Of a stretch of 9,406 nucleotides of DNA, positions 7,640-7,773 are shown piece by piece. The position numbers and the translations under genes were made by a program. The DNA lies in IMG/VR virus record IMGVR_UViG_2648501787_000010. One strand, written 5' to 3'. This DNA is from a virus (lineage: Duplodnaviria > Heunggongvirae > Uroviricota > Caudoviricetes). Each line of letters opens with the position of its first letter. The first letter of the stretch is position 1. The notes under the pieces were generated by a model. The model ran no database searches and was not told the origin of the DNA. It saw only the letters and a list, made by a program, of their open reading frames with translations.

Positions 7640-7773
7640 CGTGTTTTACCTCGTTAATCCGGCGTATTCCGGTGGTAAATACGGTAAAACAGGGCAGGGC
7701 GGGAAAAACAGTACTCACCGTTTTAAAACGGTACTCACTGTTTTTTATCTCATTGATTACGCTTTCTTTTTGC

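Follow-up and report, generated by a model that had tools for sequence, protein, structure and literature searches.

In the two relatives of this island that have been investigated, alpA acts as the master activator and stays silent unless a helper phage is present; it also activates its own expression (PMC6092414, PMC11773190). Published work on induction reports that alpA transcription rises and that AlpA feeds back, and it defines no cis site, repressor or inducer (PMC6092414, PMC11773190). Helper phages induce the alpA promoters independently of AlpA, through a phage factor, and for EcCICFT073 and EcCIMP1 the cis site of alpA control is defined in neither paper (PMC6092414, PMC11773190). 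Induction of alpA in related islands is reportedly not dependent on the SOS response itself (PMC6092414).

The window analysed here, a stretch of 9,406 nucleotides, is a satellite of about 9.4 kb with a P4-type integrase and AlpA, of the PICI type. Directly upstream of its alpA gene lies a compact, repeated and partly symmetric element, which is the subject of this analysis. The site, its likely partner family and the gene pair that flanks it appear to be undescribed, and a literature search found no mention of this island's proteins; as a kind of feature, an operator-like site is ordinary.

The island and the setting of the element

A locus that is 100% identical to the window over positions 7400-8200 lies in E. 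coli beside tRNA-Pro, next to yejM. The organisation parallels that of EcCICFT073 and is that of a Gram-negative PICI: int (8165-9406), alpA (7433..7639) and the primase/helicase gene (4105-5859) are co-oriented on the minus strand, within about 10 kb and at a specific site. The order on this strand is int, a gene for an 80-aa protein (7809..8051, also minus; hereafter X), a terminator, the element and alpA. Membership of the downstream gene in the AlpA family is clear from its profile score, since residues 6-56 of its product match PF05930 with 36.2 bits, above the curated cut-off of 21; it is presumed to be the gene under control, and X is the candidate source of the binding protein. When alpA together with its upstream region was used as a query, 442 of 5426 complete E. 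coli genomes (about 8%) gave matches, some of which align only inside the alpA coding part. A scan of genome contigs with AlpA retrieved only distant relatives in Acidobacteria and Alcanivorax.

Two E. coli lineages were compared throughout, G1, which includes the window, and G2, their AlpA proteins being about 70% identical; the 80-aa gene is conserved in both. The strains Nissle 1917 and ATCC 25922 have the G2 form. The int/80-aa unit ends in an intrinsic terminator (7779..7804, minus strand) with a 10-pair stem followed by seven T and a folding energy of -13.7 kcal/mol, and in G2 an unrelated hairpin stands in its place. A second AlpA-family gene, of 114 aa (1100-1444, minus strand; PF05930, phrog_2790), adjoins the small-terminase gene and was found in just 4 of 21 related islands. 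On the plus strand, a YlcI/YnfO-type ribbon-helix-helix (RHH) gene and a 62-aa open reading frame (6767-6943 and 6986-7174) are transcribed towards alpA and are both variable or absent among related islands; their terminator (7374-7401, plus strand) is situated just before the alpA 3' end.

Anatomy of the element

At alpA, a repeat finder resolves the element into two abutting 20-bp units that are 90% identical. The alpA-proximal unit (7705..7724, minus strand) reads AAAACAGTACTCACCGTTTT on the top strand and AAAACGGTGAGTACTGTTTT in the alpA sense, and we propose it as the primary binding site; the alpA-distal unit (7725..7744, minus strand), with AAAACGGTACTCACTGTTTT on the top strand and AAAACAGTGAGTACCGTTTT in the alpA sense, would then be an auxiliary site. 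The centres of the proximal and distal units (7711..7718 and 7731..7738, both minus strand) read GTGAGTAC in the alpA sense, which is the repeat GTACTCAC of the first-pass annotation, and the proximal one is the proposed recognition core. Both units are imperfect dyads of the form AAAACNGT-N4-ACNGTTTT, so that each contains two inverted half-sites at fixed spacing, as in a dyad-symmetric operator.

The element takes on the appearance of a composite palindrome because two partly symmetric units abut. Its outer arms are AAAAACAG (7704-7711) and CTGTTTTT (7738-7745), and the perfect 16-bp palindrome ACCGTTTTAAAACGGT (7717-7732) is the right arm of one unit joined to the left arm of the next. Direct reading and the repeat finder agree with the first-pass annotation on the palindrome, the direct repeats 20 bp apart and the outer arms; its coordinates were each one base too low. 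Relative to the alpA start (7639, minus strand), the element occupies the stretch 66-106 nt upstream, and it lies 34 nt downstream of the intrinsic terminator (7804-7779, minus strand).

When the window was subjected to dinucleotide shuffling, 48 of 400 shuffles (12%) contained a perfect palindrome of at least 16 bp, and therefore this feature is not significant when taken alone. The arms of the composite are complementary at 17 of 21 positions, a value equalled in 1 of 1000 shuffles, and the 18/20 match of the tandem repeat was reached in none of 1000, the shuffle maximum being 16. The composite element is significant beyond chance. Further copies of the 20-bp unit were found nowhere else in the window. 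One possible third copy, AAACGGTAATCAC at 7805-7817 (minus strand), is a zero-mismatch relative of the left part of the unit and is located beyond the terminator. It was rejected as a site: it shares sequence with the Lys-Arg-stop codons that end the 80-aa gene, varies in relatives at a synonymous position and is not retained in G2, and it is probably coincidental.

Conservation and natural variation

When G1 and G2 are aligned over the interval that separates the 80-aa gene from the alpA start, two well-preserved stretches stand out, the element itself (about 91% identical) and a 33-nt block at 7656-7688 (about 90%). The 15-nt spacer between them matches at 7 of 15 positions, and the 23 nt upstream of the element are about 40% identical. 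The element is thus a conserved block between diverged flanks.

Within the element, conservation is unevenly distributed. Across 12 variants the arms are almost fixed and the centres variable, with TGAGTA, TGGGTA, TGGATA, TGTATA, TTCTAA and TTATAA all seen at the centre of the distal unit, and GTGGGTAC occupying the centre of both units in many G1 relatives. The sixth base of the half-site changes freely (A, G or T), and complementarity is not kept when it does (L030, L087). The pattern search behind this first list of variants required matching arms, and we therefore repeated the comparison on 77 loci for which homology to AlpA or to the 80-aa protein was the sole criterion of retrieval. Every one of these E. 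coli-type loci has an intact proximal unit, which conforms to AAAACGGT[G/T][A/G]G[T/A]ACTGTTTT.

The distal unit is not invariant in this way. Its arms are mutated in two of the 77 loci (L130, L133), and in two other islands (L151, L155) a clean deletion of exactly 20 bp, which presumably arose by recombination between the two repeats, leaves a single unit and no palindrome. Because the distal unit has been deleted in these islands, the palindrome itself must be regarded as dispensable. It is not the palindrome that is selected: the proximal unit is invariant, beside a distal unit that mutates and in two islands has been precisely lost. One-unit islands also weigh heavily against any model that needs a hairpin between the units.

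Two further rearrangements were observed in this region. One island (L030) carries an 11-bp tandem duplication, CACCGGAATAC, at the equivalent of window positions 7664-7674 or thereabouts, inside the conserved block between the element and alpA, which can therefore accommodate one additional helical turn. A protein labelled as coming from Cooperia oncophora (P0011) is a 90-aa fusion of the N-terminal half of the 80-aa protein with the C-terminal half of AlpA; it results from a deletion that spans the element and belongs to a contaminant of E. coli origin in the nematode assembly.

The alpA promoter and leader

The stretch that holds the element is the sole place able to contain the alpA promoter. 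No consensus sigma-70 promoter was found upstream of alpA, which fits a promoter that is tightly controlled. A simple promoter matrix gave only three weak -10 candidates: TACCGT at 7681-7686, from which the units would lie near -41 and -61; TACTGT at 7708-7713, within the proximal unit; and a weak promoter, TTGCAA-17-TGAGAT, upstream of the element. Depending on the candidate, the units would lie over the promoter, or at about -41/-61, or at about -45/-65.

The second conserved block, TTTACCGTATTTnnCACCGGAATACnCCGGATT (7656..7688, minus strand), may be promoter-proximal or part of the leader, and contains the -10-like sequences TACCGT (7681-7686) and TATTTA (7676-7681). It overlaps a predicted leader hairpin (7642..7691, minus strand), whose arms at 7683-7691 and 7642-7650 would hide the alpA Shine-Dalgarno sequence. 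The stem, UGUUUUACC paired with GGUAAAACA, has 9 bp, is perfect in both G1 and G2, and includes one compensatory change from U-A to A-U, a pattern which suggests that alpA is under translational control. The hairpin favours a transcription start upstream of 7691, and hence binding sites that overlap the promoter. In three other loci (L101, L102, L105), too, alpA is preceded by a hairpin that would sequester its Shine-Dalgarno region.

The 80-aa protein and its family

The 21 islands that carry the element all encode both the 80-aa protein and AlpA. The RHH protein is missing from 7 of them, the 62-aa reading frame from 5 and the second AlpA from 17, and these three were discarded as partners, as too many element-bearing islands lack them. 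This removes the RHH protein, one of the binders suggested by the first-pass annotation, as an obligate partner; the 80-aa protein is the best candidate of the four that it had proposed. Within E. coli the co-inheritance of X with the element is partly trivial, because the two are only about 60 bp apart.

Neither the 80-aa protein nor its long relatives matched anything in Pfam, NCBIfam or PHROGs, and the family profile had no match among PDB sequences. An exhaustive profile search with the 80-aa protein returned 610 cluster representatives, most of which are 190-300 residues long and match it with their last 60-70 residues. The 80-aa protein thus consists of the C-terminal domain alone, in front of which members of the family usually carry a variable N-terminal domain of 130-230 residues. 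The relatives (proteins P0016-P0159; loci L100-L105 and L157-L167) share the pattern FWSTYDP..TAPTK.EV..YL..RG.SKNLAEAVD.VLRP....GRP(K/R)K. In the predicted structure of the 80-aa protein (mean pLDDT 76), helices at residues 12-26, 40-49 and 54-64 are followed by a basic tail, GGRPKKWKR. Fold searches gave weak matches only, and it is from the helix-turn-helix-like spacing of the helices and the AT-hook-like tail of this model that we infer DNA binding by the 80-aa protein.

The link between X and alpA extends well beyond E. coli. In every context fetched for the X family, an AlpA gene follows 145-340 nt downstream in the same orientation; these contexts come from Salmonella, Kluyvera, three metagenomic lineages and eleven IMG/VR loci, at least 12 lineages altogether, and the AlpA proteins paired with the family are of very different types. 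The G3 islands occupy the same tRNA-Pro site and have an AlpA that is 70% identical; X and the element are both absent from them, and a near-consensus promoter is present. In three E. coli islands (L094-L096), also at tRNA-Pro, with a 70% identical AlpA and with no 80-aa gene, the near-consensus promoter is TTGACT-18-TATTCT, and the int-alpA spacer further contains AACCAAT-type repeats that form a perfect 36-bp palindrome, as well as the 11-bp repeat TGTCTCATTAC in 2-6 copies. This spacer is a different control module for a similar AlpA.

A motif shared with distant satellites

When GC-rich 5-mers were ranked in the intergenic regions between X and alpA, CCCAC/GTGGG came first, with 13 copies and representation in six of six lineages. 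None of 300 shuffled sets did as well, the shuffles preserving base composition only and the lineages being not fully independent of each other. In the int-alpA regions that lack X (three G3 islands and EcCICFT073) the count was zero, and EcCIMP1 is also without a gene of the 80-aa family. The Kluyvera-type lineages carry an inverted pair of these boxes, one over the -35 position and the other abutting a TAT(A/T)TT -10 sequence.

A weight matrix derived solely from non-E. coli boxes, scanned over the whole window, ranked the two unit centres 3rd (proximal) and 7th (distal) of 18,788 positions, both on the alpA-sense strand and 20 bp apart. The cores in the window read GTGAG, against GTGGG in the distant motif. 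The AAAACNGT arms are confined to the E. coli lineages and are not accounted for by the shared motif. Judged by this comparison, the embedded direct repeats are the part of the element common to distant relatives, and the A/T-flanked arms are restricted to the E. coli clade with the short protein.

Possible functions of the element

We tentatively favour the reading that the element serves the alpA promoter as an operator and that its most likely ligand is the 80-aa protein, the product of the adjacent upstream gene. The functional unit would be a 20-bp sequence, AAAAC-N-GTG(A/G)GTAC-N-GTTTT, in which a GTG(A/G)GTAC core is flanked on each side by a short A/T run; it would be used twice, head to tail, with the alpA-proximal copy essential. 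Since 20 bp corresponds to two helix turns, proteins on the two units would lie on the same face of the DNA. Once bound, the 80-aa protein would decide alpA transcription and, through it, island excision and replication. The element had already been suggested as an operator for alpA, and of this suggestion the part that stands is a protein-binding control site, which is the best-supported interpretation in view of the conserved block and the distant motif; the palindrome is not the selected unit.

The sign of control may be either. We lean slightly towards repression of a weak promoter overlapping the sites, relieved on helper-phage induction, because the promoter of the 80-aa gene looks constitutive, because alpA needs to be silent, and because of the positions of the boxes in the Kluyvera-type lineages. 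The alternative is activation from about -45 and -65, and an alpA promoter with no -35 would suit an activator equally well. A wider proposal, which we regard as doubtful, is that the 80-aa family is the missing master regulator of a large class of AlpA-type satellites: by binding to CCCAC-core boxes in the alpA promoter, here the two 20-bp units, it would keep the island silent, and helper phages would induce the island by acting on this protein, whose variable N-terminal domain would be the sensor.

It is unlikely that AlpA itself binds the element and that the latter is the self-activation site of the alpA promoter. Self-activation by AlpA is known in EcCICFT073 and EcCIMP1 (PMC6092414, PMC11773190), AlpA is as constant a companion of the element as X is (21 of 21 islands), and there is a loose resemblance between the AAAACNGT half-site and the AAAACCA(GT) repeats that precede the 80-aa gene. 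It is these latter repeats, however, that resemble the sites of AlpA-like proteins. AlpA is a small winged-helix protein, and its structural relatives, the small winged-helix excision factors, typically use direct repeats about one turn apart, arranged head to tail (PMC11963761). Such an arrangement is found at the promoter of the 80-aa gene (8112..8157, minus strand), where a perfect TATAAT at 8112-8117 is accompanied by four 10-bp-phased AAACCA repeats at 8121-8157; the array directly follows the int stop codon, coincides in part with the -35 position and is conserved in G1 and G2. Phased arrays follow int elsewhere too, with AACCAAT repeats at 11 bp in G3 and six ACAAC repeats at 10 bp in EcCICFT073, and arrays of the 8121-8157 type look like real AlpA binding arrays. 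The element, by contrast, has a 20-bp period and internal dyads in place of the 10-11 bp spacing of AlpA- and Xis-type arrays. AlpA, although among the binders named by the first-pass annotation, is thus a poor fit, because the one-turn direct repeats that it would be expected to use sit instead at 8121-8157. In addition, islands with a 65-70% identical AlpA and a nearly identical recognition-helix region (G3 and the Salmonella locus L100) have no AAAACNGT dyads, and the shared core motif goes with the X gene in lineages that have unrelated types of AlpA. The Pseudomonas AlpA antiterminator was also considered as a model and set aside, since that protein is Q-like and unrelated, and its GGGACG site lies within the promoter (PMC9371919).

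We also think it improbable that the element is a docking site for a helper-phage inducer or a host factor that turns on alpA once the helper phage goes lytic. The idea draws on the helper-phage induction of alpA promoters that does not require AlpA (PMC6092414, PMC11773190) and on the fact that the alpA promoter here is without a -35 consensus, as expected if it depended on an activator. The exact unit occurs in IMG/VR only in satellites of 9-13 kb and in no large phage contig, and a BLAST search of the intergenic region against 50,697 phage records gave only chance 31-nt matches, to Ruminococcus phages; no phage promoter among these records therefore shares the site. Known factors fare no better. 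Neither the LexA box CTGT-N8-ACAG (on either strand) nor the P2/P4 late-promoter site TGT-N12-ACA has a match in 7640-7810, and the element matches none of the sites of CRP (TGTGA-N6-TCACA), FNR (TTGAT-N4-ATCAA) or IHF (WATCARNNNNTTR), the best CRP window having 4 mismatches in 10. The best windows for the 12-bp palindrome of SlmA, GTGAGTACTCAC, have 3 mismatches, and the natural variants GTGGGAAC and GTGTATAC stray further from it. Moreover, the two islands in which helper induction has been measured contain neither the element nor an X gene.

A role for the element as RNA, in which a hairpin and U run would form a second terminator or a leader attenuator insulating alpA from upstream transcription, with regulation exerted on read-through, is distinctly improbable, and could coexist with protein binding. 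As in an intrinsic terminator, a stem-loop is followed by a U run: the alpA-sense hairpin has a folding energy of -13.1 kcal/mol, against -13.7 for the true terminator upstream, and leads into UUUU(U)CCC on the same strand; the sense strand folds better than the antisense by 2-5 kcal/mol in 12 of 12 variants, and a terminator scan flagged the inner stem. The natural variation nevertheless preserves pairing no better than the make-up of the columns would by itself. Paired positions amount to 85.7%, compared with 84.0% in shuffles, 83 of 500 of which reached as high a value; 8 of 14 pairs never vary, a single pair changes on both sides, and the substitutions in L030 and L087 break pairs with no compensation. 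A strong terminator is already present 34 nt upstream and, unlike the element, is freely replaced. In L151 and L155 the loss of one unit abolishes the hairpin and leaves the remaining unit intact, and a hairpin requires neither a direct-repeat centre nor a match to a motif of distant satellites. Finally, that the element is functionless, a chance or selfish duplication of an A/T-flanked 20-mer, is barely credible: the 16-bp palindrome alone is within chance and the distal unit is dispensable, but no shuffle out of 1000 matched the tandem repeat, and 77 loci keep the proximal unit unaltered amid non-coding DNA that is about 50% diverged.

Significance and comparison with known systems

The element offers a short, testable DNA target in a widespread type of E. 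coli island, together with a partner gene that had previously gone unnoticed, and it bears on the induction of Gram-negative phage-inducible islands by their helper phages. Should the 80-aa protein bind, these islands may have a repressor after all, and with it a handle for the phage inducer; if it does not, the element would be an ordinary promoter-region site. Should the family prove to be a master regulator, it would be the Gram-negative counterpart of the staphylococcal Stl system.

The closest parallel in genetic setting is with EcCICFT073 and EcCIMP1. There too, the non-coding stretch between int and alpA of a satellite with a P4-type integrase, AlpA and a primase controls a helper-dependent master activator. 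Those islands differ in having no gene of the 80-aa family, no AAAACNGT units and no CCCAC boxes, and EcCICFT073 has six 10-bp-phased ACAAC repeats instead.

In the staphylococcal pathogenicity islands, which are Gram-positive PICIs, Stl is an island-encoded repressor next to int that is removed by a helper-phage protein (summarised in PMC6092414). To our knowledge, descriptions of Gram-negative PICIs list no known repressor. Were the 80-aa protein to act as one, the two systems would be alike in that a DNA-binding protein of the island holds the lytic operon off; they differ in that there is no sequence relationship between the proteins and that the 80-aa gene is co-oriented with its target, not divergent from it.

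The lambdoid operators OR1 and OR2 are adjacent sites of about 17-20 bp at a promoter, one of which is stronger and better conserved. The element resembles them in its two adjacent, partly symmetric sites, on which bound proteins would lie on one face. No CI- or Cro-type protein is found here, however, and the units are direct repeats with an asymmetric core rather than palindromes in their own right.

The P4 promoter P_LL, upstream of vis, the P4 homologue of alpA, is turned on by P2 Ogr or P4 Delta from a dyad centred near -55 (for context, PMC10111431). It shares with the alpA promoter described here, if the latter too responds to a helper phage, the setting of a helper-responsive promoter of an alpA-like gene in a satellite with a P4-type integrase, with a symmetric element and no good -35 sequence, whereas the window has no TGT-N12-ACA site and no delta or ogr gene. 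Lastly, the element looks like a bidirectional intrinsic terminator in that an A run, a stable hairpin and a T run lie between co-oriented genes; it departs from one in its conserved primary sequence, in its absence of a covariation signal and in that half of the hairpin is dispensable.
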